Notes under the pieces: generated by a model
Database searches by the model: none
Seen by the model: the letters and a program-made list of their open reading frames with translations, nothing else
Told to the model about the DNA's origin: nothing
Shown: piece after piece, positions 4,028 to 62,436 of the stretch
Layout: every line of letters begins with the position of its first letter
Position numbering within the stretch: position 1 is the first letter of the stretch
Origin: a virus
Taxonomy: Duplodnaviria > Heunggongvirae > Uroviricota > Caudoviricetes
Virus record (IMG/VR): IMGVR_UViG_3300045923_000005
Coordinates: 51,764-115,763 of that record
DNA: 64,000 nt
Reading direction: 5' to 3' (one strand)
Program-made: the position numbers and the translations under genes

Positions 4028-4563
4028 AGTTCATGCCACATCCATTCGACAACGGCACGAGTATCATCTGGCGTCTCATTAGGGAAGTCGATAATGTAAC
4101 CCATCAAGGTCATGTTGGAGCGTAGGTTGGAGACCTTCGTCTCGCGACCTTTCTTGAATATTTCTGACTGACTGTCACCACGACTGGTATGCCTAGACTC
4201 TAGGGTGCTGTCGGCGACGCTCACGTGAACGATGTGGAAGGTTGTGTCTGGTTGATCCGCTAAGAACTCTAGGAAGCTCTGTGTCCCTAGACGATCACCT
4301 TCAAATACGACGTTGCTCTTAGTGTTCTTGATGAACTCGATGGCCTGTGGTTGGACTGCCATAGAATAGCGGTCAGTACCGGGGAACGGTTCGTCCTTAG
4401 CATAGCGACCCAGGACATGGGTATCCGTTCCCTTGTTGTAAAGGGAGGGCACAAGCTTGGTCAACTCTACTTCCTGCCATGGAGCAACGCGCTCTAAGAA
4501 GGCGCGCATGATGGTGCTCTTACCACAGGCTGGTTGTCCAATCATAGCGATAATAGTTCTCAT
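4009..4563 (-). CDS. P-loop kinase-like protein (Walker A GQPACGKST)
   Basis: 184 aa; Walker A at the N-terminus, later hhhhD Walker-B-like region. The size fits small nucleotide or DNA-base kinases; position suggests a role in the modification cluster. Confidence 0.55.
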   Translation of the reverse strand: MRTIIAMIGQPACGKSTIMRAFLERVAPWQEVELTKLVPSLYNKGTDTHVLGRYAKDEPFPGTDRYSMAVQPQAIEFIKNTKSNVVFEGDRLGTQSFLEFLADQPDTTFHIVHVSVADSTLESRHTSRGDSQSEIFKKGRETKVSNLRSNMTLMGYIIDFPNETPDDTRAVVEWMWHELWPTKS

Positions 4564-7373: not shown

Positions 7374-8580
7374 CCCACATTCCTGCACTGACACCATTCC
7401 AACCTTCGCGTGCAAGAGGATTGCTTGGGTCTTTGCGCCGGTACTCTACAAAATCATACCGTAAGTCTTCATAGGCTCGGCTACCCAGTTCAAGCATTGC
7501 TTCCCTGAAGTAGCACACCAGACTGATGCGCTCTAACTCCACTCCGGCCTTGGAGATGATAGGAGTGTTGCCGTGAATGTAATCATGGTTGGCGACTAGT
7601 AGCAGATCACCAGGACGGATGTTGACGGCTGCCCGGACCTCTGGCAATACCAGATAGGCTCCGGAGTAATCGTTGTCCTTAGCGACGACCGTCAGGTTGC
7701 TGAACCCTGCTGCCAAGTCACCGGCGTCTCTATGTGCCGCCGTCCGGAAGTTCTTGTTGACGGTGATCGTTGTGAACGGTGTCTTAGGAATGTGGAAACT
7801 TGGATCGATCTGAGACGTCATAGCCATCTGGACGTTCCAACGGTATGGCAGCAGTTCTTTGAAACCTTTGGACAGCTGCTTCATAAACGGCCAGCTGAGT
7901 TTGAACCGCTCGAAGTTGTGTGCTGTATAAGACGTCGCCCGACCATATGGGATTCGTGGATACCTGTCGAACCAGCCGGCAATCCCGGAGTCAACCGGGT
8001 TGGCATAGGTGGTGTCGCTTATCAGGTTGTTCAAGACCCAGGAGGCATCGTTCCTTATCTGAGAACCGGGAACACCATCAACCAGACTGTCGTGTAGTCG
8101 GCTATCCAGCCAGCGATTGAAGTCGAAGTTGAGTCTGGCTTTCTCTTCACCGAGCCAGACCATACCGCGTGTGTCTTTCTTGTTCTTGGCGATGCTCTTG
8201 ATGCGGTCAATATCTTCCTGATTGAAGGTCGCCCGGTCGCCCAGCTTGGATAAGAAGTTCAGGATGTCCAACTGCTCTGTGGTTGCCCAGTCGCGGCCCT
8301 GACATTTGACACCCTTTGGACCGGCTGCTAGACCACGGTTCTGTGTAGGCTTGGCCGCCTGCATCAAACCTTCATAAGCACCGGCCTGTTGTTCTTTGGT
8401 GAAGAAGTTCTTACGGAACATCAGGACGACATTATGTTCCCCGTTTTCTACCGGGGACAGGGGATCCTTAAGATAGACGTCTGTGTCTTCTTCAATCAGA
8501 ATATCGTAGTGGGAGTCATCAAGAAACTTACCAAGGAGGTCTTCGCATTCACGACGCGTGACTTCAAGTACTCTTACCAA
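7270..8580 (-). CDS. 2-oxoglutarate/Fe(II)-dependent dioxygenase (HxD…H…RxS); possibly TET/JBP-like
   Basis: TAAHRDAGD (HxD) … ANHDYIHGNTP (distal His) … ERISLV (RxS), the canonical 2OG oxygenase triad spacing. The table start (GTG at 8634) lies inside a terminator hairpin, so the start was moved to the TTG preceded by GGAG (~8580). Confidence 0.6.
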   Translation of the reverse strand: MVRVLEVTRRECEDLLGKFLDDSHYDILIEEDTDVYLKDPLSPVENGEHNVVLMFRKNFFTKEQQAGAYEGLMQAAKPTQNRGLAAGPKGVKCQGRDWATTEQLDILNFLSKLGDRATFNQEDIDRIKSIAKNKKDTRGMVWLGEEKARLNFDFNRWLDSRLHDSLVDGVPGSQIRNDASWVLNNLISDTTYANPVDSGIAGWFDRYPRIPYGRATSYTAHNFERFKLSWPFMKQLSKGFKELLPYRWNVQMAMTSQIDPSFHIPKTPFTTITVNKNFRTAAHRDAGDLAAGFSNLTVVAKDNDYSGAYLVLPEVRAAVNIRPGDLLLVANHDYIHGNTPIISKAGVELERISLVCYFREAMLELGSRAYEDLRYDFVEYRRKDPSNPLAREGWNGVSAGMWDGEEFRLFAESTDRTDVWKEYHSKEESSLESLFG

Positions 8581-8587
8581 TTTCTTC

Positions 8588-8623
8588 TCCGAAAACAAAG
8601 GGCCGGAGCATTGCACTCCGGCC
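8588..8623 (-). terminator. rho-independent terminator-like hairpin downstream of cobS
   Basis: minus strand GGCCGGAGtgcaatgCTCCGGCC (8-bp perfect stem) followed by CTTTGTTTTCGG. Confidence 0.45.
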
Positions 8624-8683
8624 AAATTCTTCACTGTAGATATCTATTATACCTCACAGTTGTGTAAGAGTATATAGGAAAGT

Positions 8684-18039: not shown

Positions 18040-18765
18040 TTAGGCAGTGACCCGACGCTTCGTTGTGATGGCCTGTTTAATGACTGGCGCGACCGGTTCT
18101 TCAAAGAGCTTCTCTAACCCTTTCTTAACGGGGATCTTGGCAGCTGCTGTTGCGGCGGACTTGGCCTTAGCCCTTGCTTGGGCATCCTCATATTTGTCGA
18201 TGAACTCGGCAATGTTATCGTAGAGCTCGAACTGTTGCGCCCCGTCTTCACTATCCCCGGATTCAGCTTCATGGAGGATCCCGGCTTGCTGTGTGGCCTT
18301 GTACTTGACGTAGAGGTGCTTCTTCTCTTTCTGAACTCGTCTAACGAACGCATAGTAGATGATCTTGGTAAAATACGCAAAGGGATATTTGCTCCGCTTA
18401 GGATTGAAATTGTCGAAGTACATGATGCAGTTTTCGATGGCGTCACCGATCATTTCATCACGACATGGATAGTTGTGGAAGTTAGGCTTGTGAGCCAGAT
18501 TCTCGGCGATCAACAAAAGCTGCTTGCCTAGGATGTCTGGAATCTTTGGCTTGGGCTTCTTTGCCTTCTTGGCTTCCTTCTGATTGATCTTGTGCTGGAT
18601 GATGAGCGCAAGCATCTCGGCATTGTTGACGTAGTGTCCACTCTTGGCCTTCTTTTCGGCCGTGGACTTCGTAGAAGCCAACTCCTGAATGTACTTGCTC
18701 TTCTCTGTGATTGGTTTGACTGGAGTCGCTGCTTTCTTTTTTGCAGTCTTCTTTTTTGTTGCCAT
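18040..18765 (-). CDS. 55: late-transcription sigma factor gp55 with Lys-rich N-terminal extension
   Basis: HYVNNAEMLALIIQHK / LIAENLAHKPNFHNY / EMIGDAIENCIMYFDNF…YFTKIIYYAFVRRVQKEKK align with T4 gp55 NYVNNKELLQAIIDWK / LIAEGLSKRFNFSGY / EMIADGIEASIKGLHNF…NAFVQRIKKERK. Confidence 0.8.
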   Translation of the reverse strand: MATKKKTAKKKAATPVKPITEKSKYIQELASTKSTAEKKAKSGHYVNNAEMLALIIQHKINQKEAKKAKKPKPKIPDILGKQLLLIAENLAHKPNFHNYPCRDEMIGDAIENCIMYFDNFNPKRSKYPFAYFTKIIYYAFVRRVQKEKKHLYVKYKATQQAGILHEAESGDSEDGAQQFELYDNIAEFIDKYEDAQARAKAKSAATAAAKIPVKKGLEKLFEEPVAPVIKQAITTKRRVTA

Positions 18766-19114: not shown

Positions 19115-19408
19115 TAATGTAACCTGTATGTCATTGCAGGGGACGAGGATTAGCCCATAGCTTCGCTAGGGAATCACTCGTTTGTCACCGCGCTCTTTTA
19201 GAGCGATCAGACTTGGGACTTCGTTGGCGCGTTATACGCGCTACAGAGTTGGCTCATCCCTATGAGTTGCCGATACCACTTTGCTGTGCCCGTCTAGTGG
19301 ATGCACTCAAACGCCGACCGTAGTTGCCCCGAAGCGTAAGAGTATTGCGTTGTATCTATTATCTAGTATATCAGCAAGGTTCAATTATACCGCGATGGAT
19401 TGTAAGAG
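19115..19408 (-). other. ~290-nt GC-rich non-coding region with multiple hairpins (candidate structured RNA or gene remnant)
   Basis: No ORF of 60 aa or more on either strand in an otherwise tightly packed genome. Hairpins CGCTCTtttaGAGCG and GCGCGttatACGCGC. Confidence 0.3.
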
Positions 19409-21402: not shown

Positions 21403-21440
21403 AGTGCTTCTATTATACCATAATCTATTGAAAGAGTCAA

Positions 21441-25437: not shown

Positions 25438-26088
25438 TTACAGTTTGCCCAACATGGTTGAGAATATGTTCAAGGCCACTTCCTCAAGTTGCTTGCTCTT
25501 GGCTGATTCGATCAAACTCTTAGACTCGGCGACGTCTGCTTCCAAGAAGATAGATCCATTCCAGATCCACTCTTTTCCTTCCATGATACCATTGACGAAG
25601 GCATCTGGTGCTGATGGATCAGATACGATGTCACCGGCAGTAGCCAAGCGATAATCGTTCTGAACTACAGAACCACGTTGCGCGTCTTCTTTCAATGTTC
25701 CTAGACCGCGTGAAGAGACGCCGAACTTAACATCGTCATCAATTAGACGCTTTACAGTCTCACCGATTTGGGTGCTCAGGATCTTGGCACGACCGATCCA
25801 ATTGTTACCATCCTCGGTTAGAGAAAGGATCTTGTGAGATGCTCGGTCATAGTTGATAGTTGGAGTTGGAGGATGTCCAAGCTCACCAACGGCACGACCA
25901 GACTCAATCATCTCCTTGCGGTAACGATTGACTTCGCGCTCTAGAATGTTCTTTGGGTACCAGCGACGGTTGCGGTTCTTCAACTCAGATTGCAGCCAAA
26001 CTCCTTCGATGAAGTAATTACGGCCACCATTTGGTGCAGCTTCCACAAGGACAGCGTTATCCCAATTTGCTTCTCTAATCAGTTTCAT
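25438..26088 (-). CDS. 21: prohead protease gp21
   Basis: GELGHPPTP, GVSSRGLG, DPSAPDAF match T4 gp21 GELNHPPR, GVSSRGLG, GPSAPDAW. Confidence 0.9.
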   Translation of the reverse strand: MKLIREANWDNAVLVEAAPNGGRNYFIEGVWLQSELKNRNRRWYPKNILEREVNRYRKEMIESGRAVGELGHPPTPTINYDRASHKILSLTEDGNNWIGRAKILSTQIGETVKRLIDDDVKFGVSSRGLGTLKEDAQRGSVVQNDYRLATAGDIVSDPSAPDAFVNGIMEGKEWIWNGSIFLEADVAESKSLIESAKSKQLEEVALNIFSTMLGKL

Positions 26089-26090
26089 CT

Positions 26091-26369
26091 TTACAATCCT
26101 AGTGCGTGTCTACGACGCAAACTTCTACGTCTCTTTAACAGGCTACGGGCCAACTTGGCTCGGCGCTTAATCTTTCCCTTTCTGGCTCCACGTTTGCGGT
26201 GAAGCTTCTCAGTCGTGCTCATCCTGACCAAACGTCCACCACGCAATGTAAAACCTTTTACATTGCTGGTACGAACGTTGCGCTGAACCTTACCATTGCG
26301 GATGCGGACTTTAATCCTGCGAATCCTTGGTCCTTTATTTTCAGCCAGATGGTCAAGAAAGCTTTCCAT
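26091..26369 (-). CDS. highly basic 92-aa protein (Arg/Lys about 35%), candidate internal/DNA-binding protein
   Basis: …KRGARKGKIKRRAKLARSLLKRRRSLRRRH…; located in the head-assembly block. Confidence 0.45.
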   Translation of the reverse strand: MESFLDHLAENKGPRIRRIKVRIRNGKVQRNVRTSNVKGFTLRGGRLVRMSTTEKLHRKRGARKGKIKRRAKLARSLLKRRRSLRRRHALGL

Positions 26370-26889: not shown

Positions 26890-28074
26890 TTACTTCAAAT
26901 GTACATCTACAAAATCGACGACCTTCTTCAGACCATCGGGGCTGCTATTTACGAGCGCTTCAACCTTGCGCTTATTGTGTTCGCGCATAAGACTATGTAG
27001 TCGCATGATACGTGCGGCAGTTCCGTGGTGGACCATCGCATTGGAACCGTTCTTAAATCTTACAGTTGCGGGAGTCTTAGACTTCGCAATGCTGTGTAGA
27101 GAATGGATCGTGGCTTCGACGATCGTCTCCTCACCGGTCAACAGAGCCTTCATAGGCTTGGACACTGGATGTTCTTTTGGTCCATGAGTAGTCGGATCAC
27201 CATGGCGACCCTTTAATAGTCTGTGGATGGCAATACGTTCCTTGCTACCGATCTTTGGCTTGGATGCCTTGATGGCCTTTTCTACAGCGGCTGGATTATA
27301 GGCTTCATCCATAAACTCTTCACCAACCAATGATGCCTGGTGCTTGAACTTGGCATAGTGATGGTTGGCCAATTCTGTTTCGCCGGCAGCATAGTGATTG
27401 GCGGCAGCCTTCAGATGGGTTGCAGCCTTCTCACCATAACGGGATTCAACATGGTTCAGCAAGTGGTGAGCTTTTGGGCGACCGGGTAGCTGAGAGGAAT
27501 GGACGTATGCACCAAACAGAGTATCAGACGGTCTTGTGTTTTCGTCGATGCCTGCCTTGTCGTTAGCAGAAGTGTGCGTGCGCAGAACTGTTTCGCCTTC
27601 ATGATTGGTAGAGATGTGGTGCTTTTCGCCACGATACTCGGTATCACGACCTTCGCCACTCTTTGTCAAACCCAAGTGTTTAGCAACAGTATCAAGCTTC
27701 TTAGTGGTGCCGCCACGGAACCAAGACACGTGCGCGCCGTTCTGCTTCTCTTGTTCCATGTGAGTGAAACCGTGCTTCTTGAAGACACCCTTGGCAGTGT
27801 GGTGCTTCTGTAGATTACCAAACTCACCCTCTTCGAGAGTTTCCTCAGTAGCAGTGATGGCTGTACCAATAGTAGAGATCTTGTGCTGACCTAGAGTCTG
27901 AGGATTGTATGGAATAGCTAGTTCAATATCTAGATTATCATTCTTGTATGTAGCTACACGTTGACCATTAGGGAACAGCCGTATACCCTTACGCCGCATG
28001 ATCAGAACTGTTGGGGGATCCTGAAATGCGGTAAGCTCGTTGATAGGGGACTTGATCTCACTTAGTCGCTTCAT
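26890..28074 (-). CDS. His-rich protein (394 aa) with EETLEE/EETIVE motifs, candidate internal head protein
   Basis: about 9% His; motifs TEETLEEGEF and GEETIVEA resemble the EETLDE linkers of the adjacent 768-aa protein. Confidence 0.55.
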   Translation of the reverse strand: MKRLSEIKSPINELTAFQDPPTVLIMRRKGIRLFPNGQRVATYKNDNLDIELAIPYNPQTLGQHKISTIGTAITATEETLEEGEFGNLQKHHTAKGVFKKHGFTHMEQEKQNGAHVSWFRGGTTKKLDTVAKHLGLTKSGEGRDTEYRGEKHHISTNHEGETVLRTHTSANDKAGIDENTRPSDTLFGAYVHSSQLPGRPKAHHLLNHVESRYGEKAATHLKAAANHYAAGETELANHHYAKFKHQASLVGEEFMDEAYNPAAVEKAIKASKPKIGSKERIAIHRLLKGRHGDPTTHGPKEHPVSKPMKALLTGEETIVEATIHSLHSIAKSKTPATVRFKNGSNAMVHHGTAARIMRLHSLMREHNKRKVEALVNSSPDGLKKVVDFVDVHLK

Positions 28075-30380
28075 TATTTCTTCTTGCTGTTCAAATGTCT
28101 TCGTACAGAACGCTTCAACTTGTTTCTTGTATGTATGCCGGCAGCATCGTGGTTAGGATTATCACCTGACTCTACGACCGTCTCTTCATCGATGTGGCCA
28201 GAGTCACCATGGTGATTCCATAAACCAACTTTTCGGCCTGTTTCTTTATGGACAGCGTAAGTCAGACCACCGGTAGGACCCTGCACATGCGCGGTCTTAG
28301 ATGCGTGCTCTTTCCACTTATCGAAATCTGTATAGACTGTTGATGTTTTATTCTGCTCTGTGATTTCTTCTGATACGTTCTTGATCTTGTCCCAATAATG
28401 AGATGACATGTGACCGTGGCCATGTCTCCAAGCAGTCATTCGAGCATCCTTCTCCATACTCTTCGCTCTATCCGCGTAAGTGTTAGGAACATTTTGTGAA
28501 TTGTATTCATGACGCTTAGAGAAATGTGTGTGCAATTCTTCTGGTGTCATTGCACCTAGTTTTTGCTTGTGTTTGATAACACTAGATGGCATGCGCGCAC
28601 CTTCATCAAGTACATCTTCGTCAACTGTATCTTCCTTTACAGTCTTAGAACCTTTGGCAATAGACACATGTTCCTTACGAACAATGTGATAAGCATCAGA
28701 ATCAGGCTTAATGATATGAACTTCGGTCTTGAAAGGAACCATTTGACTAAACGTATGTTCACGATGAACAGAATGGACAACACCCTCGTGTTCCTTACCG
28801 TCTTCGTGCCATTTTACATTCCTTCCTTCCCAAGGATGGTTGTTGATACGACCTGAGCGAATTTCGTCGAGAGTTTCTTCGCTTACAGCAATGTGGTGCA
28901 TCCAACCCTTGTTGGCACCAGGATGCCAAACACCGTGAATGCCGCCGGACTTGTTACGAGCGCTGACGTGACCCTGACCAGAATGAAGTTCTAGACCCAA
29001 AGCCTCAGCATGCTTGTGCCAAGTTGTAGCATCTGTGTGCTTAACTACATTGTGTTCTGCTTCGGCCAATGATTCATTCTTGGCGCCATAGTAAGCACCA
29101 AGAGCGCGCTTGATGCGCTGCTTCTTAGAATCACCCTTGAACATCTTGTTCCTAGAGTGTACAAAGTCATCAACGTAATCGGAAGCAGTAGCACCCTTGC
29201 CTAGAGTCTCGTGGATGGTTTCCTCGAACTTGGCAAGATGATGGAAATACTTGGATTGGATAGCAGAGGCCAATGGATGGTTGCGCCCATGAGAAGCACC
29301 AAGATTATTGTGGACAGCCGCGACATGACGCTTCATTGCTGAATGTTCTTCAGGAGTACCGAAGTGCTTAGCGAGCATCAGGCTATTTTCAGCATGATAG
29401 TTCTCGTCTTCGTTCTTGCGGAACTTATTCAACATGGCCTTGGTTTCATCCAAAGTCTCTTCAGAAAGCTTCTTGAACTCTGACTTGGTGTGACCGAAAG
29501 GATAGCCGTTGACTTCCTTTGGATGACCTTCCCAATTGATGTGATGGTATGGTTGATCGATGCCCTGATGAACTGCTTGATAGGTACCCTTGGTTCCTTT
29601 CTTTACAACATGCTCACCCTCGGTGCCGCCGTCTGTGTCCTTAGTTGCAACTACAGTATCACCCTTCTTGAAAGCCTCATCAAGAGTTTCTTCATGAAGA
29701 GCTAAGTTCTTTGGTGAATGTTGAGAAGAGGTGCCATCACGAAACTCAACGCGATGATGCTTAGATATTGGACCAGCTGGACCACCAATATTTCCATAGG
29801 AATGACCGGCCACCTGACCTACCATTCCAAAGTGAGGATGGCCACGATCAGTAACTTTGACTTTTGCTCCAACTGGGAACTTGACCTTGCCTTCATCAAT
29901 TGTCTCTTCACCAATGTGGCCAAAGTTCTGAGCGAACTCAGCCATCTTAGCAGCATGACCGCCAGCGGCCTTACCCTTGGCAATATCAGCAGCGGTGATC
30001 TTAGCGTCTTCCGGCTTTCCTAGCCAACGATGGAAGGCTCCCTTCTTCACGTGGATGGCTGTGGTTTCATCCAAGTCTTCCTTGATGTGTTCGAGTTTGT
30101 CCTGGTGGTGCCATCCTGTACCACCACCTTCATGAGCTACTCTGAAAACGTACTTGGCATTCGCACCTTCACCTTCAACATGGTGGGCAGCATCAATGTG
30201 TCCAACAGCACCTGTTTGCTTGTGCTTGACTGTATCACCTATATGGAACCCTGTATAGGCCTCTCCAACAACCGGTGTATCCAGACGACCTACGTTTGGA
30301 CTGATAGTTATTGCTTGACTTGACTTAGATAGCTTCTTAGCTTCCTTTGCCTCGGCATAGAATGCTTTTAGAACGCCCAT
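28074..30380 (-). CDS. large His/Lys-rich repeat protein (768 aa) with recurrent (S)EETLDE linker motifs, candidate internal head protein
   Basis: Internal repeats of G-D/A-x-V-K…G-x-V-G-H domains, separated by LHEETLDEA, LSEETLDET, VSEETLDEI, GEETIDEG, EETIHET, DEETVVES. Each contains L/I-x-E, the T4 gp21 cleavage consensus. Confidence 0.65.
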   Translation of the reverse strand: MGVLKAFYAEAKEAKKLSKSSQAITISPNVGRLDTPVVGEAYTGFHIGDTVKHKQTGAVGHIDAAHHVEGEGANAKYVFRVAHEGGGTGWHHQDKLEHIKEDLDETTAIHVKKGAFHRWLGKPEDAKITAADIAKGKAAGGHAAKMAEFAQNFGHIGEETIDEGKVKFPVGAKVKVTDRGHPHFGMVGQVAGHSYGNIGGPAGPISKHHRVEFRDGTSSQHSPKNLALHEETLDEAFKKGDTVVATKDTDGGTEGEHVVKKGTKGTYQAVHQGIDQPYHHINWEGHPKEVNGYPFGHTKSEFKKLSEETLDETKAMLNKFRKNEDENYHAENSLMLAKHFGTPEEHSAMKRHVAAVHNNLGASHGRNHPLASAIQSKYFHHLAKFEETIHETLGKGATASDYVDDFVHSRNKMFKGDSKKQRIKRALGAYYGAKNESLAEAEHNVVKHTDATTWHKHAEALGLELHSGQGHVSARNKSGGIHGVWHPGANKGWMHHIAVSEETLDEIRSGRINNHPWEGRNVKWHEDGKEHEGVVHSVHREHTFSQMVPFKTEVHIIKPDSDAYHIVRKEHVSIAKGSKTVKEDTVDEDVLDEGARMPSSVIKHKQKLGAMTPEELHTHFSKRHEYNSQNVPNTYADRAKSMEKDARMTAWRHGHGHMSSHYWDKIKNVSEEITEQNKTSTVYTDFDKWKEHASKTAHVQGPTGGLTYAVHKETGRKVGLWNHHGDSGHIDEETVVESGDNPNHDAAGIHTRNKLKRSVRRHLNSKKK

Positions 30381-40258: not shown

Positions 40259-40474
40259 TCTTGAGTCCTAACTTATCCTCTAGCTCGGTGCGCCGCGCAC
40301 GCAAACGAAAAATCTCATTATGATCCGCAATTGACGGAGCGGCGAAGTAGCTCTTCAACAGCTTGTTCAGCTTGTCGTTGATCTCAGCGATTTCCCAAAG
40401 GATCCAAACACGACCGGCAGGACTGATCATTTATTGAACCTCCAACTCTATTATACCGTACATTATTGTAAGAG

Positions 40475-44278: not shown

Positions 44279-44306
44279 TATATTATACGCCTGTTATCTG
44301 TAAGAG

Positions 44307-52043: not shown

Positions 52044-52313
52044 TCAATATATTATGAATGCTTCGCCACTCTCCACTGCTCTCTTCATGAGATCGAGTGC
52101 AATGTTGGCCGGTACATTGTTCGCCCTGCACCATTCGGCTAGCTCTTCCAGGCCGATGCCACTGTCGATCTTTGGTTTGATATCATTGGTGCCAATGAGG
52201 TCTTGAAATTCAGATAGACTGTCGTCTAAGACGTAGTCCTCGTCTGCCGGAGATGCTGTCTCTGGGCTGACAGTGGTTGTACCCTCTATCAGTGGTCCAG
52301 AGACATTGTTCAT
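52044..52313 (-). CDS. hypothetical acidic protein (89 aa)
   Basis: coupled ORF. Confidence 0.3.
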   Translation of the reverse strand: MNNVSGPLIEGTTTVSPETASPADEDYVLDDSLSEFQDLIGTNDIKPKIDSGIGLEELAEWCRANNVPANIALDLMKRAVESGEAFIIY

Positions 52314-53248: not shown

Positions 53249-54532
53249 ATGGCCGCAACAAAAACACCCGATAAGACTCAAAAGCAGATAATCAATTTGT
53301 ACAGAGCCGCTCTGGAGACGAGTGGTGTGAAGGTAGGTCCTCCTTCTGGTCGCTTCGGACCTAACCTAAGAATAATGTCTGCGGGTGATCCTGCTAAGTT
53401 GCTCAATGCTATTTCACCTTGTACTCTTACACCAACTGATGTTGTACGTTCTGGTCAGTTTGCTACTCTAGTTCTGACCTTGCTTAAGGACTTTGGTCCT
53501 GCCAAGAAAGGCGACCAATGTTACTTTGTTCAGTCCGTGCGCTCTACCGGTGAGATTCGTAACAAGAGCCTGACGCCTGATGCGCTAGGGATGGGTGGCA
53601 AGACGATCAATAAGAGTTTGTTTGAGAGAGTGGCCATAGAAGGAATTGGTAAGAGTAAGGACGTCAATGAGAACATCAAAGCCTTCTTGTATTCACTTTT
53701 GGATGCCAGCAAGGGGAATGGACAGATCAAGGCCAAGCAAATAGAAAGCATTAGTGATTCAGATCTGAATGTCATAGCAAAAGACTTTGGTGAGATCTCC
53801 GGCGCTCTTTGGTACATGTCCAATGAGAATAAGAGCACCAAGGCTATTGAGTTTCCTTCTGCCTCTAATGCCCGGCTGGTTGACTACTATGCTGTGGAGG
53901 GTAACAAGAAGATCGCGATCTCTGCTAAGGCCAATGAGGGAGCGCCTCCTTCTATTGAGGCAATCGCGGAAATCCTTTTGACCAAGAAGTACGGCAGTCC
54001 TGCCAAAGATGGAGCCAGGAAGGCTATCATCTCTATTGCTCAGAGCAGTGTTATTGAGGGTATTGTGAAGGCCAGTATGGACCTAAAGACCAAGGGCTAT
54101 CAGTGGATGAAGACCAAGGTCTTCCGTAGGGATTGGAAGGCAGCGGATGTAGAGGCGATGCTGGCCAAGTATAAGAGTCCAAAGCAGTTCCTGGCGGAGT
54201 TTGCTCCGTTCTATGCGCTGATTGGACGTACAGCAAGTGAAAAGACCACGGATGAAATCTTCAAGCAAAAAGCCAAGCGTAATGGATTGATCTTGTCTCC
54301 TATGGGCTATTCCCTAGTAGACGAAATGAACGGCAACAAAGTGTTCTTGGAAGTATTGACGGATGCGGCTCAGCAAATAAAAGTCAGCCAACTGTATATT
54401 AAGATCAGCAAGGCTACCAAGAGAGTGGATTACCACATCAAGGAATTTGATAGCAGTAAGTTTGAGTTCAAGTACAATTCAAATGCTAAGAGTCCTTCCC
54501 TAAAGAAGATCTCCTTCATCATAGCCAAGTAG
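53249..54532 (+). CDS. plus-strand 427-aa protein of unknown function (accessory/moron)
   Basis: Clean ATG start preceded by AACTCTTACAttatacagacaGTAGAATAGgat (the same box pair seen before minus-strand genes). About 330 nt of non-coding DNA lies upstream. Convergent with the His-rich gene. Confidence 0.6.
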   Translation: MAATKTPDKTQKQIINLYRAALETSGVKVGPPSGRFGPNLRIMSAGDPAKLLNAISPCTLTPTDVVRSGQFATLVLTLLKDFGPAKKGDQCYFVQSVRSTGEIRNKSLTPDALGMGGKTINKSLFERVAIEGIGKSKDVNENIKAFLYSLLDASKGNGQIKAKQIESISDSDLNVIAKDFGEISGALWYMSNENKSTKAIEFPSASNARLVDYYAVEGNKKIAISAKANEGAPPSIEAIAEILLTKKYGSPAKDGARKAIISIAQSSVIEGIVKASMDLKTKGYQWMKTKVFRRDWKAADVEAMLAKYKSPKQFLAEFAPFYALIGRTASEKTTDEIFKQKAKRNGLILSPMGYSLVDEMNGNKVFLEVLTDAAQQIKVSQLYIKISKATKRVDYHIKEFDSSKFEFKYNSNAKSPSLKKISFIIAK

Positions 54533-54534
54533 CC

Positions 54535-55413
54535 TTAGTCTTTATTGTGGTCAGGATGAAATTGAGGATGGTGTTCTTTGACCCAATCCATAATTTCCTT
54601 GTGTTTTCCTTTGCCGGCAGTCCCTGCTTGGCGATGTTTGCGGTCGAACTCAGCCACATCACGCACCGGTCCACCTACACTACGCTTCTTTGCCTTAATG
54701 TATTCACCTAGATTATCCCCAAATTTATGGGGTTTGCCGCCATTAGGTGTAGGAACCATTAGTCCGTGGTGCTTAGGGATCTTCTTAATCTCGTGCGCAC
54801 GGACAAACCAACGGTCGTGCTCACCACTAGCCGCGTGCTTGACTTTGCTATCGTCTATTACTGTAACGTGTCCGTCTTTAGTTGCGTGGTGAATACGCTC
54901 GCCCTTATCGTTGAATACGTGCGTAGAGCCTTTAGTGCTCCAAAGAGCAACGTTGCGTCCTACGTATCCCATTCCCTTGCCACCGAATCCTCCATCACGG
55001 TGGGGAGCCTCGTGCTTAGGAGTGCGTCCTGTTACCTTACGCTTGAACTCGCTCTTGAATTTCTGCTCATGAGGGGATAGGACTAACGGGTGAGCAGGAG
55101 CAAAGGAATAGTATCCGTGCTTATGAAGATGCTCGTGAAACTCTTTGGTGATAGTGTGGTGATCTAGCTTGGAAGGCTTGAACTCACCTAGCATCTTGTG
55201 ACCTTCGTCATTATCAATATGCTTGTGTTCTTTTGGAGCATACTGACGTTCGTCTAAGACTTCTTCGGTTAGGTGTCCGTCATCGAAGTCATCGGTCTTT
55301 TTGATGTAATGGATAACTGGAGGTTTGGATGCGTGAAGCATTAGGACGACATGAATAGGTTCGTCATGTCCTCCAGTCTTTGCTTCTGCTAGGTATTGCT
55401 TCAGGCTTATCAT
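54535..55413 (-). CDS. His-rich protein (292 aa) with TEEVLDE motif
   Basis: about 11% His; HLTEEVLDERQ resembles the EETLDE motif of the 768-aa and 394-aa proteins. Confidence 0.55.
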   Translation of the reverse strand: MISLKQYLAEAKTGGHDEPIHVVLMLHASKPPVIHYIKKTDDFDDGHLTEEVLDERQYAPKEHKHIDNDEGHKMLGEFKPSKLDHHTITKEFHEHLHKHGYYSFAPAHPLVLSPHEQKFKSEFKRKVTGRTPKHEAPHRDGGFGGKGMGYVGRNVALWSTKGSTHVFNDKGERIHHATKDGHVTVIDDSKVKHAASGEHDRWFVRAHEIKKIPKHHGLMVPTPNGGKPHKFGDNLGEYIKAKKRSVGGPVRDVAEFDRKHRQAGTAGKGKHKEIMDWVKEHHPQFHPDHNKD

Positions 55414-55443
55414 CTATAACCCCTTGTAGATGATGTATTTAGG

Positions 55444-55803
55444 CTAATCTACCTGTCGGGTTAAGAACGTTCCGTGATCCTTGGTTGTTGTAGCTTGAGG
55501 ATCTAATATGTCCTCACCTGCCCAGCCTAGTTTGAATGGCTGACCGCGCGTCTTACCCTGGATATAGACAGGATAATTGAAGTCATCGTCACCAACGTCA
55601 TCGTCTACATATACGGATTCAAGGACGAAATCTTCATAGCTGTTCTTGATCACAACCAATTGGTATTCAAGGAACCGGGTATAGCGTCCTTCTTGTGAGA
55701 AGTTTACGCAACTGATAGTTACCTGTTTGTCTATGTAACGACGCTCGTGACGCGTCAAGTGGTGCGTCCCCACGTTATCCATAAACTCGTCTAACTCATC
55801 CAT
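55444..55803 (-). CDS. small acidic-N-terminus family member (MDELDEF…)
   Basis: N-terminus MDELDEFMDNV; one of a tandem family. Confidence 0.5.
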   Translation of the reverse strand: MDELDEFMDNVGTHHLTRHERRYIDKQVTISCVNFSQEGRYTRFLEYQLVVIKNSYEDFVLESVYVDDDVGDDDFNYPVYIQGKTRGQPFKLGWAGEDILDPQATTTKDHGTFLTRQVD

Positions 55804-56053
55804 CTAAATCCTCGGGATTAACAAGATCACGTTTATATAAGGTAATTGTCCCATCTTCGTCCTGTTTGATACCCCAATCGTCGCGGAATCGTCTTGGACC
55901 GGGTCTAACATAGACCACTTCCATTTGGATATCTGGCAAGTGTCTACAACTCAAACTACCAATACATTCCTTGTGACAAATAGGAAGGGAACCGGGAGGC
56001 GTCTTCAGTTCCGTATCTACTAGCTCAAGGAACTCATCAGTATCATCAATCAT
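55796..56053 (-). CDS. small acidic-N-terminus family member (MIDDTDEFLELV…)
   Basis: overlapping start/stop with neighbours. Confidence 0.5.
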   Translation of the reverse strand: MIDDTDEFLELVDTELKTPPGSLPICHKECIGSLSCRHLPDIQMEVVYVRPGPRRFRDDWGIKQDEDGTITLYKRDLVNPEDLDG

Positions 56054-56309
56054 ATCGTAATCTCTTTGGTAGAGGATTCCTAGCCATTAGAGCCATACCG
56101 GCTTCAGACGTCATTGGTTGTACGCCTACAATACTAGCAGCCATAATCTGCGGCATCAAGCGATGTATCATAGACATTAGAATAGGAGATGGGATCGGCT
56201 TCTCACCTTCAGGATTACGCTTAGCAAGTATAGCCTGGATTCGCTCTTGTAATGTAGGTTGATAGACGAGCTCATAGAACTCATCCAGATCATCTAGTTC
56301 ATCGGTCAC
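56046..56309 (-). CDS. small acidic-N-terminus family member (MTDELDDLDEFYELV…)
   Basis: tandem family. Confidence 0.5.
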   Translation of the reverse strand: MTDELDDLDEFYELVYQPTLQERIQAILAKRNPEGEKPIPSPILMSMIHRLMPQIMAASIVGVQPMTSEAGMALMARNPLPKRLRYD

Positions 56310-56593
56310 GTGATAGTTACTTTCTTGTTCTTTACGTCGATGGATACATCTGTAGCAACGAAGGTAGGCTCTTCCTCTTTCTTCTTCTTCAATTGCTTTT
56401 CACAGATACTGTAATAGGCTAGGCGGATGAGTGCTGACCAAACCAATGCACCCTCGCAATCGCGGATTACCGCACGCCTGATTAGATACTTCTCGTCTGG
56501 AGTAATGGTGATCTGCCCAACGGTGTCGTTGAATGTATCGAAGTCATCGTCGTCAAAAGACTCACTCATAACTCCTCCAACGTTGCTTACCAT
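56306..56593 (-). CDS. small acidic protein (MSESFDDDDFDTFNDTV…), family-related
   Basis: tandem family, divergent N-terminus. Confidence 0.4.
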   Translation of the reverse strand: MVSNVGGVMSESFDDDDFDTFNDTVGQITITPDEKYLIRRAVIRDCEGALVWSALIRLAYYSICEKQLKKKKEEEPTFVATDVSIDVKNKKVTIT

Positions 56594-56601
56594 AAGAGTA
56601 T

Positions 56602-56886
56602 TTAGGCCTTAATATAGTCTCTGAAGCCGGGGCGATATCTTATTCTGGCGCGTCTACTTTCTTCTGTCCTAACGGAAGGAATAGTCCACATCTCGAGATT
56701 AAAGAAGCCATTCCAAACTTTATCCCATTTGCCTAACAATATTGCGTTGCTCGGTAATTTGCTACGCCAAGTTAGCTTATGGTATCGACCGTCACGGTCC
56801 GCTTTGTAAAGGAACCAGACGCGGTAATCCTTCGCTACTATAGGACGATCAACTAATGTATTGATGAATTCATCTAGCTCATCCAC
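56602..56886 (-). CDS. small acidic-N-terminus family member (MDELDEFINTLV…)
   Basis: tandem family. Confidence 0.5.
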   Translation of the reverse strand: MDELDEFINTLVDRPIVAKDYRVWFLYKADRDGRYHKLTWRSKLPSNAILLGKWDKVWNGFFNLEMWTIPSVRTEESRRARIRYRPGFRDYIKA

Positions 56887-57160
56887 GTGACTTTCCTAAT
56901 GTAATAGGATGCGGTGTATTCTTGAATACTTCAGGTGTTTGGAAATAGAAGATGTTTTCTTCTAGATCAAACCGGCAGCAATTACATCCTTCCGGTAATT
57001 GGTCGCGACCTATTTTATAGATTACTATCTCACCAATTCCTTCGTCGCGCACCGTCCGGAAATATTCTGGGAATACCTCGTGCCTGTAGGCTACCAAACA
57101 AACCATCTCTTCAGGCATATCCTGAAAGAACTCGTCTAGTTCGTCTAAAGATTCACCCAC
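56879..57160 (-). CDS. small acidic-N-terminus family member (MGESLDELDEFFQDM…)
   Basis: tandem family; CxxC pair NCCRF. Confidence 0.5.
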   Translation of the reverse strand: MGESLDELDEFFQDMPEEMVCLVAYRHEVFPEYFRTVRDEGIGEIVIYKIGRDQLPEGCNCCRFDLEENIFYFQTPEVFKNTPHPITLGKSRG

Positions 57161-57163
57161 GTA

Positions 57164-57376
57164 TTAGTCCTGTAGGAATTGTGGACCTTTCTCTTGATCT
57201 GATAGACTAGATGAAAGAGTACGCTCACAACAAGGACAATTAAACATAGCACGAACGGTGATCTGGTTCCGGGTGATACGCTCACCATACTCGAACTTGT
57301 ATATTCCTTGACAATTACTACAAGTAATGGTATAGGTACGACCCGCTACACTTCCGGCCTTGATAGTTATAGGCAT
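57164..57376 (-). CDS. zinc-ribbon protein (70 aa)
   Basis: CSNCQG…CPCCE. Confidence 0.4.
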   Translation of the reverse strand: MPITIKAGSVAGRTYTITCSNCQGIYKFEYGERITRNQITVRAMFNCPCCERTLSSSLSDQEKGPQFLQD

Positions 57377-57723
57377 TAACCTCTCCTGTTCAATAGATTG
57401 ATGCGACGTACTGCGCGTGGCAATTCAGTAGCATCTTCCTTCGGCGGAACCGCTCTTTGAGGACGGTGCTGTATACCAACGAGCGCATTAAACTCGTCCA
57501 TTTCATCTTCTGGGGGATTTGCCTGAAGGGATTGCTTGACTAGTTCTGTTATGACCTCGCTATCCACTTTCTTGCGGAATTGCTCGGTTAACTCTGAATC
57601 TAGAGCTTCACCGTGGTATACTTGTGGCATCACTACCTCCCACGTCGCTTTCAGCTTTCTCATAAATTTCCTTATAACATTCCTGTTGTATTCTGTAGAT
57701 ATCGTCGCAGTCCTGACCTTCAA
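57376..57723 (-). CDS. hypothetical protein (115 aa) containing an internal EDEMDEFNALV motif
   Basis: tandem array member. Confidence 0.35.
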   Translation of the reverse strand: MKVRTATISTEYNRNVIRKFMRKLKATWEVVMPQVYHGEALDSELTEQFRKKVDSEVITELVKQSLQANPPEDEMDEFNALVGIQHRPQRAVPPKEDATELPRAVRRINLLNRRG

Positions 57724-57798
57724 TACGCTTGTTCAACAAACGTAGATAGGAATCAAATAGCCGTAGCTCTTTGAAGTCGGCCGCGCTTACCGTGTCTG

Positions 57799-58065
57799 TC
57801 ATGATTGCGGATGGTAAGTAATGCTGATGAAATTGGATACGTCGTTGTCAGCGCGGAACTCTAGGTTGAGATATACCTCTATCAACCGGTTATTGCGCAG
57901 GTGCTCTTCAATCTTAGTCTTGATGCTATCCACGATCTGATCACGTTGAAGGTAGAGATCCTCTTCCTTATCCTCAGGGACTACATCGATGCCGACGCCA
58001 TCTATGAACTCATGGTCTTCGCTCAGTTCAAATTCCTTCATATTATGCTCCTGCCCAAAAGGCAC
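57799..58065 (-). CDS. small acidic protein (88 aa; …EDHEFIDGVG…)
   Basis: tandem array member. Confidence 0.4.
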   Translation of the reverse strand: MPFGQEHNMKEFELSEDHEFIDGVGIDVVPEDKEEDLYLQRDQIVDSIKTKIEEHLRNNRLIEVYLNLEFRADNDVSNFISITYHPQS

Positions 58066-58363
58066 CGACGTCTTCGAAGTGTTGTGATAGTTTCATCAAT
58101 TGATAACGCTCGTGGTCACCGAAGTTGCCGCCAAGGTTTTTGACATTTATTCTATATTTGTACCAAGCATTCATGTAGGCTTGGTAATCATTGGTGAATG
58201 CCTCGTCCCATACTTCATGAGACTTACGATTATGCCAACGATCCCACATAGGTAGATTCCTAGGATGGATAGCATTGATCCTATCATAGCAGTCCTGTGA
58301 ACTACCGGCAAAGCCTTCTCCATCACCAAGGGAGGCCTCCAGGAACTCTTCTAATTCATCCAT
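58043..58363 (-). CDS. small acidic-N-terminus family member (MDELEEFLEASL…)
   Basis: tandem family. Confidence 0.5.
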   Translation of the reverse strand: MDELEEFLEASLGDGEGFAGSSQDCYDRINAIHPRNLPMWDRWHNRKSHEVWDEAFTNDYQAYMNAWYKYRINVKNLGGNFGDHERYQLMKLSQHFEDVGAFWAGA

Positions 58364-58667
58364 TCTTCACCAGTGCCAATGTGTCTATTACTTCGTGATG
58401 CTTGGGTGTGTCCCGTTCCGTATTGCTGATGTATACGTGGAGAGCCTTCTTGAGCTCTTCCAACCATTCAGTTGAGCGCGCTACCGGTATCCTCATATCT
58501 ATATCTAATAGTAATTCCGCATTCATGCGGGCCAGGAATTCGTCCTCTTCACTTTGCTCTGGTATCTCTTCTGGAGTAATAGGGCGAACCTTAGCTTTAC
58601 TCAGACCACGGAAGAACTTGGTGACCATCACCAATTGCTCTTCGTTGCAGTCTGATGTAGCCATCAC
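58356..58667 (-). CDS. hypothetical protein (103 aa; internal …SEEDEFLARM… motif)
   Basis: tandem array member. Confidence 0.35.
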   Translation of the reverse strand: MMATSDCNEEQLVMVTKFFRGLSKAKVRPITPEEIPEQSEEDEFLARMNAELLLDIDMRIPVARSTEWLEELKKALHVYISNTERDTPKHHEVIDTLALVKNG

Positions 58668-59465: not shown

Positions 59466-59504
59466 CTAATATTGTACCATATGTAACTGTAAGAGTATAT
59501 AGTA

Positions 59505-60015: not shown

Positions 60016-60109
60016 TATTATACTCGCTTTATTTGTAAGAGTTTACCAGCCGCTGTTGCCCCAATTACGTTCACCGTCTTCCTCACCAACAACCTCCCAT
60101 ATACTCGCT

Positions 60110-60763
60110 TTATTGTAAGAGTTTACTTCTTTGGATGTTACCTTCAACAAATCCTTCAGGCAGCGGAGCATCCGGAGGTATTCTCCTATTCGCCGTTCCG
60201 TTGTTAACCCAACGTAATCCCTTACAGTATGTATTACCCAGTTTAGTGGAACCCATAGCTTTCCTACCGGCTTCCGTCGCCATGGGATTACGTTCAATCA
60301 TCATAGTTCTTAGGATTTGTCTTTCTTCATCTGGTTTATCACGATACACATATTCGCGATTTTTCATAGATTCTTCCCATTTCGCTCGATGTATAGGATT
60401 GGAAAGAATGTTGTTAACGCCACTAATACTTTCGACCATCTTTCGTCTTAACCAACCGAATGTTCTATTGGTTCTGACTATTTGCCCGGTGCCTTGTCGC
60501 ATCATACTGGCACCATATAATATACCACGGTTACTAGGATACATCTTCACCAGGAGTAGGTGCGCGACGTAATGCTCTTCTGGTGTTAGATAAACGACAT
60601 TATCACAAGTGTATAGACCATCCATACAACCAGGGATTATGCGGTGAGCCTCACGATAAGTTCCGTCTCGTTCTTTCCAGGCAGTAGCCCTTTTCTTGAT
60701 TCCCACCCAAACGAGGCGCGGGGATCTATCTATCAAACGTTTGTAATGCGCGGAGTAGTTCAT
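60110..60763 (-). CDS. HNH homing endonuclease
   Basis: HRIIPGCMDGLYTCDNVVYLTPEEHYVAHLLL (H-N-H); the stop overlaps the gp17 start region. Confidence 0.7.
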   Translation of the reverse strand: MNYSAHYKRLIDRSPRLVWVGIKKRATAWKERDGTYREAHRIIPGCMDGLYTCDNVVYLTPEEHYVAHLLLVKMYPSNRGILYGASMMRQGTGQIVRTNRTFGWLRRKMVESISGVNNILSNPIHRAKWEESMKNREYVYRDKPDEERQILRTMMIERNPMATEAGRKAMGSTKLGNTYCKGLRWVNNGTANRRIPPDAPLPEGFVEGNIQRSKLLQ

Positions 60764-62436
60764 CAGTAAAGTCTATCGTATAACTCTTCTTCCCCCACCA
60801 CGGTCCAGATACATCCATCATGCTTGAATTGGTTCTTAGCAGGGTCGCTCTGAATAAGAACGGGAGGCAGAGGAATCTCTTGCTCTAACTGCGTCACGCG
60901 TTCAGCGTACAGAGCAGAACGGGGATCAGTAGCCGCAAGGTCTTTGAAGAATGGTTGGATAGATAGCCAACCGAATAGAACCAGGGTCATTACCAAGTCG
61001 TCATGGCAATCACTATCAGCTGCATACGTCTTGTTAGGACGGACAACGAACGTCGTTAGCTCGGCGATCGTCTGGAAGTCTAGTGTGACCAATTGATGGT
61101 TCTCGATCAACTGCTTGATAGCATTACATCCAATACGCTTAGTCTTAGGTGTAGTGCGTACACCTGGCTGCCGGACGCTGCGTGTGGATACTTCCTGCTG
61201 TTTGTACATGTTAGCGTCGCTGTAGAATACGTTCTCATATTCTAGGTCATCTAGCAATATCTGTAGAACGACCGCGCCAACGTCGTTGGATTCAACTAGG
61301 ACATAAGCCTTGTTGTATAGGGTAGCGACCTGCTTGATCACATTAGGATATAGTTCGTATGGTATTTCATTAGAGTGATAGACGGCAACGACTTTATACG
61401 GAGCCTTGGTTACGTCTATAACAGAGAAAGCGGAGTAGTCCATTTCCTTACCATGAGAGACGTCTACCGTCATAACATATCTGTGGCCAGGACGGACGTC
61501 TTCATACACGCGCAGTTTCTTTTCTAGCTGTAGCTTAATAGGATCGACGAATACCATGTTCTTCAGACAGGTAGAGCTAATCAGGGTTCCTGCGGATCCC
61601 ATGAATTCAACTTCCTGCTCCTGTAGGAACTTCTCTTCGCTCATTACAGACTTCTGATCCTCTGCCCACTTCTTGTTACGGCCAGGGACCTGGTTCCACT
61701 TAACTGTCATATGCTTGAAGCTATTCTTCTTGTTGACAGCGTCCGTGAACATCTTGTAGAAGTGGTTCATACCGTTCGGTGTACTACAGATGATAACCTT
61801 GGCGGTCTTACCAGAACTAATCGTAGGGTATACGGACGTGAAGAAGTTGATAGCGACTTGATTAGGTACGTGTGCGTATTCATCAAGGAACAGCAAGCTG
61901 ATAGAGAAACCTCGGATGGCGTTGCTTGATGTAGAAGAACTGATGACGCGTGAACCGTTCTCCAATAGGAAGCTCGTCTTGTTCCAGACCTGGATACCCT
62001 GCTGCATCCATATCGGAACGTTCATATACATTTCTTGAATCTTGCTCAAGATTTCAGTTGCGGTGTCCTGCTTGTTAGCAAGGATAGCCGCCGTCTTTAC
62101 GCTATTGAATAGGATGAACCAAAGGATGTAAGCAGCAGACGTTGTAGTCTTACCTGACTGACGAGCACAACGCATTATGACTCGGTTCCAACGGTGGAAC
62201 TTTTGAATCATCTTCTTTTCATAGTCATACAACTTGAAAGGAATGATACCCTCGTCGATAGAAACGATCTTGGCATAGTTCTCAACGAAGTAATCGGGGT
62301 TCTTGGCACACAGGGCCATCTCCTCCAATTGCTCCTTCGTCATATTGAATTTCTGTCCGCACTTCTTCAGACGCGGGTTGCTATTGAATTCCTCGACGTC
62401 ATCATGTTGTATGATAGGAATTAGTTTAAGAGCCAT
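60763..62436 (-). CDS. 17: large terminase subunit gp17
   Basis: Walker A MRCARQSGKTTT versus T4 LSRQLGKTTV; LFLDEYAHVPN versus IYIEDCAFIPN; ICSTPNGMNHFY versus ITTTPNGLNHFY; C-terminal nuclease HDDLVMTLVLFGW versus HDDLVMSLVIFGW. Confidence 0.9.
   Translation of the reverse strand: MALKLIPIIQHDDVEEFNSNPRLKKCGQKFNMTKEQLEEMALCAKNPDYFVENYAKIVSIDEGIIPFKLYDYEKKMIQKFHRWNRVIMRCARQSGKTTTSAAYILWFILFNSVKTAAILANKQDTATEILSKIQEMYMNVPIWMQQGIQVWNKTSFLLENGSRVISSSTSSNAIRGFSISLLFLDEYAHVPNQVAINFFTSVYPTISSGKTAKVIICSTPNGMNHFYKMFTDAVNKKNSFKHMTVKWNQVPGRNKKWAEDQKSVMSEEKFLQEQEVEFMGSAGTLISSTCLKNMVFVDPIKLQLEKKLRVYEDVRPGHRYVMTVDVSHGKEMDYSAFSVIDVTKAPYKVVAVYHSNEIPYELYPNVIKQVATLYNKAYVLVESNDVGAVVLQILLDDLEYENVFYSDANMYKQQEVSTRSVRQPGVRTTPKTKRIGCNAIKQLIENHQLVTLDFQTIAELTTFVVRPNKTYAADSDCHDDLVMTLVLFGWLSIQPFFKDLAATDPRSALYAERVTQLEQEIPLPPVLIQSDPAKNQFKHDGCIWTVVGEEELYDRLY

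Follow-up and report, generated by a model that had tools for sequence, protein, structure and literature searches.

A short acidic peptide shared by unrelated miniproteins of an uncultured T4-like phage is a candidate docking tag

In a 64,000-nucleotide stretch of a caudovirus genome (positions 51,764 to 115,763 of IMG/VR record IMGVR_UViG_3300045923_000005; hereafter the window) we analysed an array of small, overlapping genes whose products have in common a short acidic peptide built around a phenylalanine. The source is an uncultured T4-like myovirus, represented by metagenome contigs only (JGI 3300044796, Logan SRR35360338), whose major capsid protein shares no more than 55.6% identity with its counterpart in any sequenced phage, Synechococcus myoviruses being nearest by this protein. 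We put at roughly 0.55 the probability that the peptide is a portable docking, or address, tag, and we infer both the docking and the partner from sequence. Five observations support docking: the peptide is conserved at the protein level, it sits on unrelated bodies, it takes part in modular fusions, it is kept in every ortholog group, and in one family it lies in a tail predicted to be disordered. Precedent, by analogy, comes from the capsid-targeting sequence (CTS) of the T4 internal proteins, the acidic N-terminus of T4 Alt, and the ...DDLDAF... helix of T4 gp32.

Eleven genes of the window, all on the minus strand, carry the motif: ten of 80-119 amino acids (aa) in the array proper (55444-58664), and an eleventh that lies apart from them (Table 1). 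With h for a hydrophobic residue, the motif reads [DE][DE]-F-h-x-x-h-[G/D], usually with Leu at -3 from the Phe; two start codons were corrected relative to the longest open reading frame (ORF) calls. The Phe is residue 7, 8, 11, 12 or 13 in eight members and residue 36, 43 or 47 in the other three, and the isoelectric point (pI) is 4.0-5.1 in 9 of 11, a94 and a115 being the only basic ones. Junction overlaps measure 8 nt (NTGxxTGA) at four places and elsewhere 4 nt (ATGA/GTGA) or 1 nt. An initial annotation had described consecutive small ORFs with MDELDEF-like starts, variants of the motif inside neighbouring ORFs (EDEMDEF and SEEDEFL), and genes overlapping start to stop; all three descriptions hold.

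Table 1. Positions in the window of the tagged genes, associated genes and promoter-like motifs (a slash follows each 10-residue leader)
Feature	Position	Strand	Motif or signal	Remarks
a119 (119 aa)	55444-55803	minus	MDELDEFMDNVG	Phe7; begins MDELDEFMDN
a85 (85 aa)	55796-56053	minus	MIDDTDEFLELVD	Phe8; body rich in Cys/His
a87 (87 aa)	56046-56309	minus	DLDEFYELVY	Phe11; motif fused to gp23 fragment
a87b (87 aa)	56306-56569	minus	MSESFDDDDFDTFNDTVG	Phe13; Thr instead of Glu before Phe; Shine-Dalgarno GGAGGAG
a94 (94 aa)	56602-56886	minus	MDELDEFINTLV	Phe7; N-terminus MDELDEFINTLVD; basic
a93 (93 aa)	56879-57160	minus	LDELDEFFQDM, MGESLDELDEFFQDM	Phe11
a70 (70 aa)	57164-57376	minus		CxxC...CxxC, zinc-ribbon-like; inside array, without motif
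a115/84	57376-57630	minus	EDEMDEFNALVG	internal; Phe47 counted from ATG after GGGAGG; longest ORF starts at 57723
a64 (64 aa)	57608-57802	minus		no clear motif; weak look-alike AADFKELRL at most
a80 (80 aa)	57799-58041	minus	MKEFELSEDHEFIDGVG	Phe12; AGGAG 9 nt upstream of ATG
a106 (106 aa)	58043-58363	minus	MDELEEFLEASLG	Phe7; overlaps upstream gene by 8 nt
a103 (102 aa)	58356-58664	minus	SEEDEFLARMN	internal, Phe43; DNA 58521-58553
m89 (89 aa)	52044-52313	minus	DSLSEFQDLIG	outlying member; internal, Phe36; 16.3 bits with motif profile
a292	54535-55413	minus	MISLKQYLAE/AK (55384-55413)	directly downstream of array; not a family member
CTAAATA of a292	55436-55442
x92, N-terminus	26340-26369	minus	MESFLDHLAE/N
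x394 (394 aa)	26890-28074	minus	2 EET[LIV]xE	His/Lys-rich
x768 (768 aa)	28074-30380	minus	MGVLKAFYAE/A (30351-30380); 7 EET[LIV]xE	His/Lys-rich
gp21-type prohead protease	25438-26088	minus
gp15-gp17	60763-62436	minus		position is that of the terminase
CTAAATA, mid-array	56599-56605	minus	extended, GCCTAAATAC	31 nt before MSESF start of a87b
CTTACA-N11-TAYAAT	1924-1946, 8646-8668, 19384-19406, 21412-21434, 40450-40472, 44282-44304	minus
CTTACA-N11-TACAAT	59471-59493	minus		upstream of transcription unit leading into array
CTTACA-N11-TAYAAT	60017-60039	minus		second copy upstream of array

A hidden Markov model (HMM) built from the 11 instances scored 13.4-21.8 bits on precisely these 11 among the window's 1,148 six-frame stop-to-stop segments, each time in the real frame. 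No further segment reached 5 bits, the look-alike in a64 included, and the reversed-sequence control gave no match of at least 4 bits. Matches on which the model had not been trained were found in related phages: the 3.3-kb sister contig L252 has eight (9-14 bits), and a second sister, L253, has four. About 615,000 aa of ORFs from some 160 other T4-like loci yielded a single match of at least 6 bits, with a maximum of 8 bits; among more distant T4-like phages, sampled at about 160 loci near their terminase and sheath genes, the motif was not found beyond the closest clade. The tag is lineage-restricted, being present in the window phage, L252, L253, L089 and L091/L092 (the last two carry identical copies of the tagged genes), and ranges more widely in the a80 family, where Glu11 and Phe12 are invariant down to 16% identity and all 13 clusters in a library of 1.84 billion proteins have an acidic Phe motif. 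An exact scan of IMG/VR for MDELDEF returned 83 single matches in unrelated families, for example at the N-terminus of an IscA-like Fe-S protein and at an internal site of a family of about 150 aa, which rules out the bare heptapeptide as a widespread tag. Searches by whole sequence were largely silent: in 50,697 phage genomes neither the region (by megablast) nor two of the members (by tblastn) found a match, a word-indexed search with a106 retrieved a106 alone, and PHROGs, Pfam and NCBIfam, run on all members, returned only a gp23 fragment and weak matches to two families without assigned function.

Selection on the motif acts on the protein and not on the DNA, because identity over the five core codons is 0.66 at codon positions 1 and 2 against 0.38 at position 3, and because the 33-nt motif segments, with a mean identity of 53%, have a longest common run of only 10 nt. 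The conserved unit extends past the Phe to h-x-x-h-G. Orthologs in L252 are 53-72% identical in protein sequence, with proportions of nonsynonymous and synonymous differences (pN and pS) of 0.16-0.32 and 0.54-0.87 and a dN/dS of 0.09-0.28; with pS near saturation and pN low, these are genuine genes on which purifying selection acts. The ortholog groups of the sister phages all retain the tag while the bodies diverge. MDELDEFM of a119 is unchanged in an L252 ortholog of 53% identity; a106 corresponds to MDDLDEFLEAS in L252 and MNDEEEFFEII in L091/L092, and a87b to DFDGFNDTVG in L252 and DFDGFSDSVG in L253. The internal motif of a103 (dN/dS of 0.25 against L252) lies at the same position in its orthologs from L252, L253 and L089.

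These data bear on the possibility that the motif has no function and is a duplicated 5' gene end, a recombination repeat in the DNA, or a by-product of start/stop overlap or translational coupling. The four junctions that share NTG-xxT-GA do fix codons 2 and 3 as Asp/Ile and then Glu/Asp, motifs occur at module junctions in L252, and the hyperplastic regions of T4-like phages are shuffled by recombination at short conserved elements (PMC2839356). The overlap, however, spans the first 8 nt only and so is limited to codons 1-3, from which it follows that it cannot explain L-D-E-F-h-x-x-V-G; the initial annotation had likewise thought overlapping coding an improbable source. Third codon positions are scrambled, the internal copies are free of any overlap constraint, and each ortholog group preserves the motif, under purifying selection, at near-saturated synonymous sites. 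The codon-position identities and short common runs rule out a DNA repeat or overlapping-coding artefact, and we regard a motif without function as improbable overall. The orphan-gene cassettes of T4-like hyperplastic regions do resemble the array in being dense runs of small orphan genes between core modules, with content and order that vary among close relatives (PMC2839356). They differ in that the cassettes share intergenic DNA, a promoter plus stem-loop (PeSL) that mediates shuffling, whereas the array has no intergenic spacers and its common element is a peptide conserved at the protein level.

The members are not the paralogs that had initially been proposed. All-against-all BLASTP gave no alignment beyond the 7-15-residue motif, one body is a gp23 fragment, and two structural models differ, so that a family of tandem paralogs can be ruled out. 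What stands of the initial description is a diversifying set in which one short terminal peptide is attached to unrelated bodies that shuffle between sister phages. The gp23 fragment forms the body of a87, which matches residues 83-129 of this phage's own gp23 (BLASTP E=2e-10; Pfam Gp23 28.1 bits, cut-off 24.4), maps to T4 gp23 residues 89-127, and has orthologs in L252 and L253. Since short gp23-fragment proteins without the tag occur in many other phages, the tag was added to a pre-existing module. Of the two array genes without the motif, a70 matches phrog_2834 (E=1.3e-4) and has homologs in L088 and L253.

L252 displays the modules in other combinations. The N-terminal 24 aa of a64, an internal LEELDEFLDLIG and the a94 body are fused there in frame into a 131-aa protein, and a 107-aa protein carries two tags, the second, internal one preceding the Cys segment of a85. 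In these fusions the internal tags look like the starts of fused modules.

Proteins with such a gp23 fragment, a87 included, measure 67-151 aa (P0013-P0035; L256 4001-4348), are found in many unrelated phage contigs with differing flanking sequences, and retain only the most conserved gp23 stretch, ..LPMIRKxMPxxIAQDIVGVQPMTG... This stretch probably covers the EF-Tu-binding Gol region, in which a review sees the part of gp23 with the highest conservation; such proteins might act as decoys or might bind EF-Tu or the chaperonin. One of them, P0020, ends ..FALRWL and belongs to an array in another phage (L256 48-5253) of about 20 overlapping genes of 57-115 aa, most of which end ..[WMF]F.L[RK]W[SR]-stop. 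This seems to be another array of miniproteins with a common terminal peptide.

In an AlphaFold 2 (AF2) model of a80, made from an 8-sequence alignment, the overall predicted local distance difference test score is 78.7, below 50 for residues 1-20 and 83-95 for the body, which places the tag in a predicted disordered N-terminal tail ahead of a confidently modelled alpha/beta body. Foldseek found nothing below E = 0.6 for this model in the PDB. A single-sequence AF2 model of a119, of low confidence, shows residues 3-11 as a helix and the body as rich in beta structure; the body of a80 is modelled instead as an alpha helix and a beta hairpin. Read from the sequence, the hydrophobic residues at -3, 0, +1 and +4 would share one face of a helix.

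We therefore favour, at the odds given above, a mechanism of the following kind. The tag would be a short acidic amphipathic helix, made up of an acidic run, Leu at -3, the Phe at 0 that never varies, further hydrophobic positions at +1 and +4, and a capping Gly/Asp, and would lie on a flexible linker or tail that is not part of the protein fold. Unrelated small bodies would have acquired it by module shuffling, and a changing set of miniproteins could in this way bind the same site on one common partner. Terminal peptides are in use elsewhere in this phage, as CTS-like N-termini and C-terminal LExLF tails. Several points weigh against docking. Acidic amphipathic helices are generic. The tag family is confined to one small clade, which limits its comparative power, and in relatives further away Leu at -3 is lost, which reduces the core to [DE][DE]F-h-x-x-h. 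The predicted disorder comes from one family and an alignment of eight sequences, the second model being of low confidence. Mimicry tests against sliding-clamp motifs, gp32 tails, gp67 and the gp23 N-terminus, set out below, were negative or reflected composition, and yielded no partner.

Among candidate partners the assembling prohead core comes first, as a tentative best single guess that the initial annotation had also made. The tag would then be a capsid-targeting propeptide, a special case of a docking tag, and the miniproteins would be loaded into the capsid in the manner of T4 Alt and the internal proteins, without obligatory cleavage or perhaps with trimming after LDE, and ejected into the next host as anti-defence effectors. 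The variable internal proteins of T-even phages have only the CTS in common (PMC3012670); there, as in the array, a short, mostly N-terminal peptide is the sole shared part of small, diverse, fast-evolving proteins, and the array members are similar in size to IPI and IPII. In the T4 CTS, MKTYQEFIAE, targeting depends on residues 4 and 7 and processing on residues 8 and 10, and three members (a119, a94 and a106) likewise have a hydrophobic residue, Leu, at 4, Glu6, Phe7 and a hydrophobic residue at 8. In the other members the Phe is residue 8, 11, 12, 13, 36, 43 or 47. T4 Alt, a packaged and ejected ADP-ribosyltransferase, is an effector that is delivered from the head and loses a short propeptide (PMC9026906). 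Its N-terminus, MELITELFDE by our verification, resembles MDELDEFMDN in having Leu/Ile-x-Glu followed by hydrophobic or aromatic residues. Further points in favour are the capsid-protein fragment in a87, the likeness of LDE to the EETLDE sites of x768, and the position of the array between gp17 and gp18, where it shares the strand of the surrounding block of late structural genes and terminators are not in excess.

Other observations run counter to capsid targeting. Residues 8-10 of a119, a94 and a106 are MDN, INT and LEA, with no conserved Glu10 and no h-x-E processing site. T4 internal proteins are "highly basic" (PMC8442874), but the array tag is strongly acidic and most of its carriers, at pI 4-5, are acidic too. 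The tag lies at a variable distance from the N-terminus (F7 to F47), being internal in three window members and in the a103 orthologs. Alt, for its part, is a single protein of 76 kDa with an established cleavage, which would be impossible at the homologous position in several of the array groups. The phage has a separate, canonical CTS, distinct from the array motif, on three basic proteins: x768, a292 and x92 have leaders of 10 residues with h-A-E at 8-10, in the length and register of the T4 CTS. A profile of gp67-like core N-termini ranked the CTS-bearing x92 27th but the array N-termini 99th to 1454th out of 2527, so that mimicry of this N-terminus was rejected despite single look-alikes (MDDIKDFISNIL). 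Mimicry of the gp23 delta-domain N-terminus (LxxKWxPVL) was rejected as well, since no match of the corresponding HMM exceeded 1.1 bits or fell on the motif. Of the three CTS bearers, the basic, His-rich a292 has, in addition, a TEEVLDE site and its own CTAAATA; it is not adjacent to the array in L252, being absent from the matching position. A homolog of x92 in a distant T4-like relative (L104 17405-17680) begins MLTFSQFLSE/S.

A reading narrower than targeting, that the motif is a plain cleavage site of the prohead protease, can be largely rejected. T4 gp21 cuts after L/I-x-E, the gp21 homologue that the initial annotation had placed in the window is indeed there, and L-[DE]-E precedes the Phe in 6 of the 11 window members. 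Sites of this type appear in x768 and x394, which lie between the portal and the protease and carry EET[LIV]xE repeats; the repeat is found in no other ORF of the window, except once in the tag of m89 (DDSLSE). From their sequences these two look like polyprotein head-core or internal proteins that a gp21-type protease would cut into pieces of 60-110 aa. The proposal that LDE is a gp21 site keeps that resemblance but fails as a general account, because the a87b group has Thr or Gly at P1 in all three phages and P3 is Glu, Asp, Thr, Ser or Ala, and not Leu or Ile, in the a103, a80 and a85 groups and in relatives. The invariant positions of the tag, moreover, lie on the P' side (Phe, +1, +4 and Gly), where the x768 sites have no such conservation.

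Promoter-like motifs of two classes are found at the array. The late-promoter-like CTAAATA occurs 12 times in the window against 5.4 expected, with nine copies on the coding strand, and precedes the portal, sheath, tube, gp23 and gp67-like genes. The copy in mid-array, ahead of a87b, is conserved at the same junction in L252, which favours capsid targeting; in L253, CATAAATAT lies in the array before an a70-like gene that itself precedes an a87b-like gene. The second motif, CTTACA-N11-TAYAAT, is of early/middle type and is present in eight copies against 0.33 expected, all on the coding strand. It consists of a -35-like box 11 nt from a -10 box, with TATAAT ending 0-25 nt before most starts, a geometry that suggests very short leaders or leaderless mRNAs. 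One copy is the point from which the array is entered (59471-59493), and the upstream half of the array has that promoter type only; together with the lack of a late motif near the tagged genes of the distant relatives L089 and L092, this speaks against packaging. TATAAT boxes before individual array ORFs, for which the initial annotation had suggested testing, were not found; the two TATAAT-type promoters of the region are those upstream. Other copies precede gp45, UvsY, a Tet/JBP oxygenase and further genes. Because both promoter classes are present at the array, timing does not separate the hypotheses.

A second candidate partner, ranked well below the prohead and in our view unlikely, is a pocket of the type that receives the L-D-x-F helix of T4 gp32, hydrophobic and with a basic rim, on a protein of replication or recombination. 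The tag would in that case mimic the partner-recruiting helix of gp32, or acidic tails of single-stranded DNA-binding proteins (SSBs) generally, and would plug the miniproteins into replication and recombination proteins or compete with gp32 for them. In T4, gp32 peptide 248-270 is helical when bound to the Dda helicase, which it contacts by V258, L262, D263 and F265 (PMC11551737). Within it, residues 250-264 (...KVADDLDAF...) form an acidic amphipathic docking helix in a flexible tail, with contacts made by an L-D-x-F arrangement (PMC11551737), and ...DDLDAFN... has the same L-D-x-F spacing as DELDEF. In other T4-like phages the gp32 tail closes with L-x-[YF]-F-x-x-L-A after a stretch of acidic residues. 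The promoter class of the upstream half of the array is also that of gp45 and UvsY, and DNA-modification enzymes of this phage have clamp-binding-like tails, which would make replisome docking already a theme of this genome. The gp32 helix is nevertheless C-terminal and borne by one hub protein, and its likeness to the tag comes to a few residues (2.7 bits with the motif HMM). Among 67 gp32 tails, which did not include the clade's own gp32, 10 matched at 0 bits or more against 9.0 +/- 2.2 in shuffles, and the resemblance is therefore compositional; shuffling the tails did away with an apparent 20-fold enrichment, and of the gp32 sequences only the T4 DDLDAF helix resembles the tag. We saw no Dda homolog in the window, and there is no evident reason for 11 such mimics in one phage.

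A sliding-clamp motif, resembling the PCNA-interacting protein (PIP) box h-x-x-F-h and directed to gp45 or the host beta clamp, is very improbable. L-D-E-F-[FYLMI] does fit h-x-x-aromatic-h, and gp45 is encoded in the window. We reject this reading because the phage's own candidate clamp-binding motif is a C-terminal L-E-x-L-F, unlike the array motif in spacing and terminus; position +1 is moreover Asn or Gln in three members, and the motif HMM gives the FEN1 PIP box 1.3 bits. Clamp-binding motifs and the SSB C-terminal tip DDDIPF offer a likeness of principle, each being a short acidic/hydrophobic linear motif that involves a disordered tail and many unrelated clients, but they differ from the tag in sequence, spacing and terminus. 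The LExLF tails themselves are found on a Tet/JBP-type oxygenase (7270-8634, ending ...SSLESLFG) and a 390-aa ADDT-like protein (4560-5732, ending ...GLEGLFE). They look like sliding-clamp-binding motifs and would tether DNA-hypermodification enzymes to the gp45 clamp. A similar GLEKLFEE lies near the C-terminus of gp55 (18040-18765).

The remaining probability for the partner falls to some other host or phage hub. The initial interpretation as a whole is partly supported. The tag may mark fast-shuffling effectors that are all bound for one partner, and the fusions in sister phages show how new tagged genes arise. T4-like hyperplastic regions abound in orphan miniproteins, and studying the function of each in turn is not practicable; a common tag turns eleven such orphans into one testable question, namely what binds it. 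If the partner is the prohead, the tag would be a second, acidic capsid-loading code beside the classical CTS, and would provide both a set of injected effectors in an uncultured lineage and a new handle for cargo packaging. If it is a replication or host hub, the array would be a clear case of one short linear motif routing many effectors to one target. It is possible, at odds well short of even, that the tag is an address code new for bacterial viruses, by which a dozen reshuffled miniproteins plug into one non-capsid hub such as the gp32-helix pocket on replication and recombination proteins or a host hub protein. Were this so, effectors would be delivered by linear motif, and new ones could be made by fusing the tag to any small domain.

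The array occupies the terminase-proximal end of a hyperplastic insert of about 24 kb. Along the minus strand, gp15-gp17 are followed by these roughly 24 kb of small genes and then by the sheath, tube, portal, head-core proteins, gp21, gp22 and gp23. In this otherwise all-minus-strand region, a 427-aa ORF without a family match lies on the plus strand (53249-54532) and is conserved beside the array in L252. Just downstream of the terminase, a 217-aa gene (60110-60763) is of full length in the window and in L002, while in the JGI contig L001 (3803-4132) only its 3' half is called, which points to a presence/absence or disruption polymorphism between near-identical phages. Beyond the start of the window (L258 10635-20603), gp45 is followed by gp44, gp62 and RegA, and then by a block with a dCMP deaminase, a glycosyltransferase, a methyltransferase and a metallophosphatase. 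Taken with the Tet/JBP oxygenase, the ADDT-like protein and a P-loop kinase of the window, this block suggests that the phage has hypermodified DNA bases.

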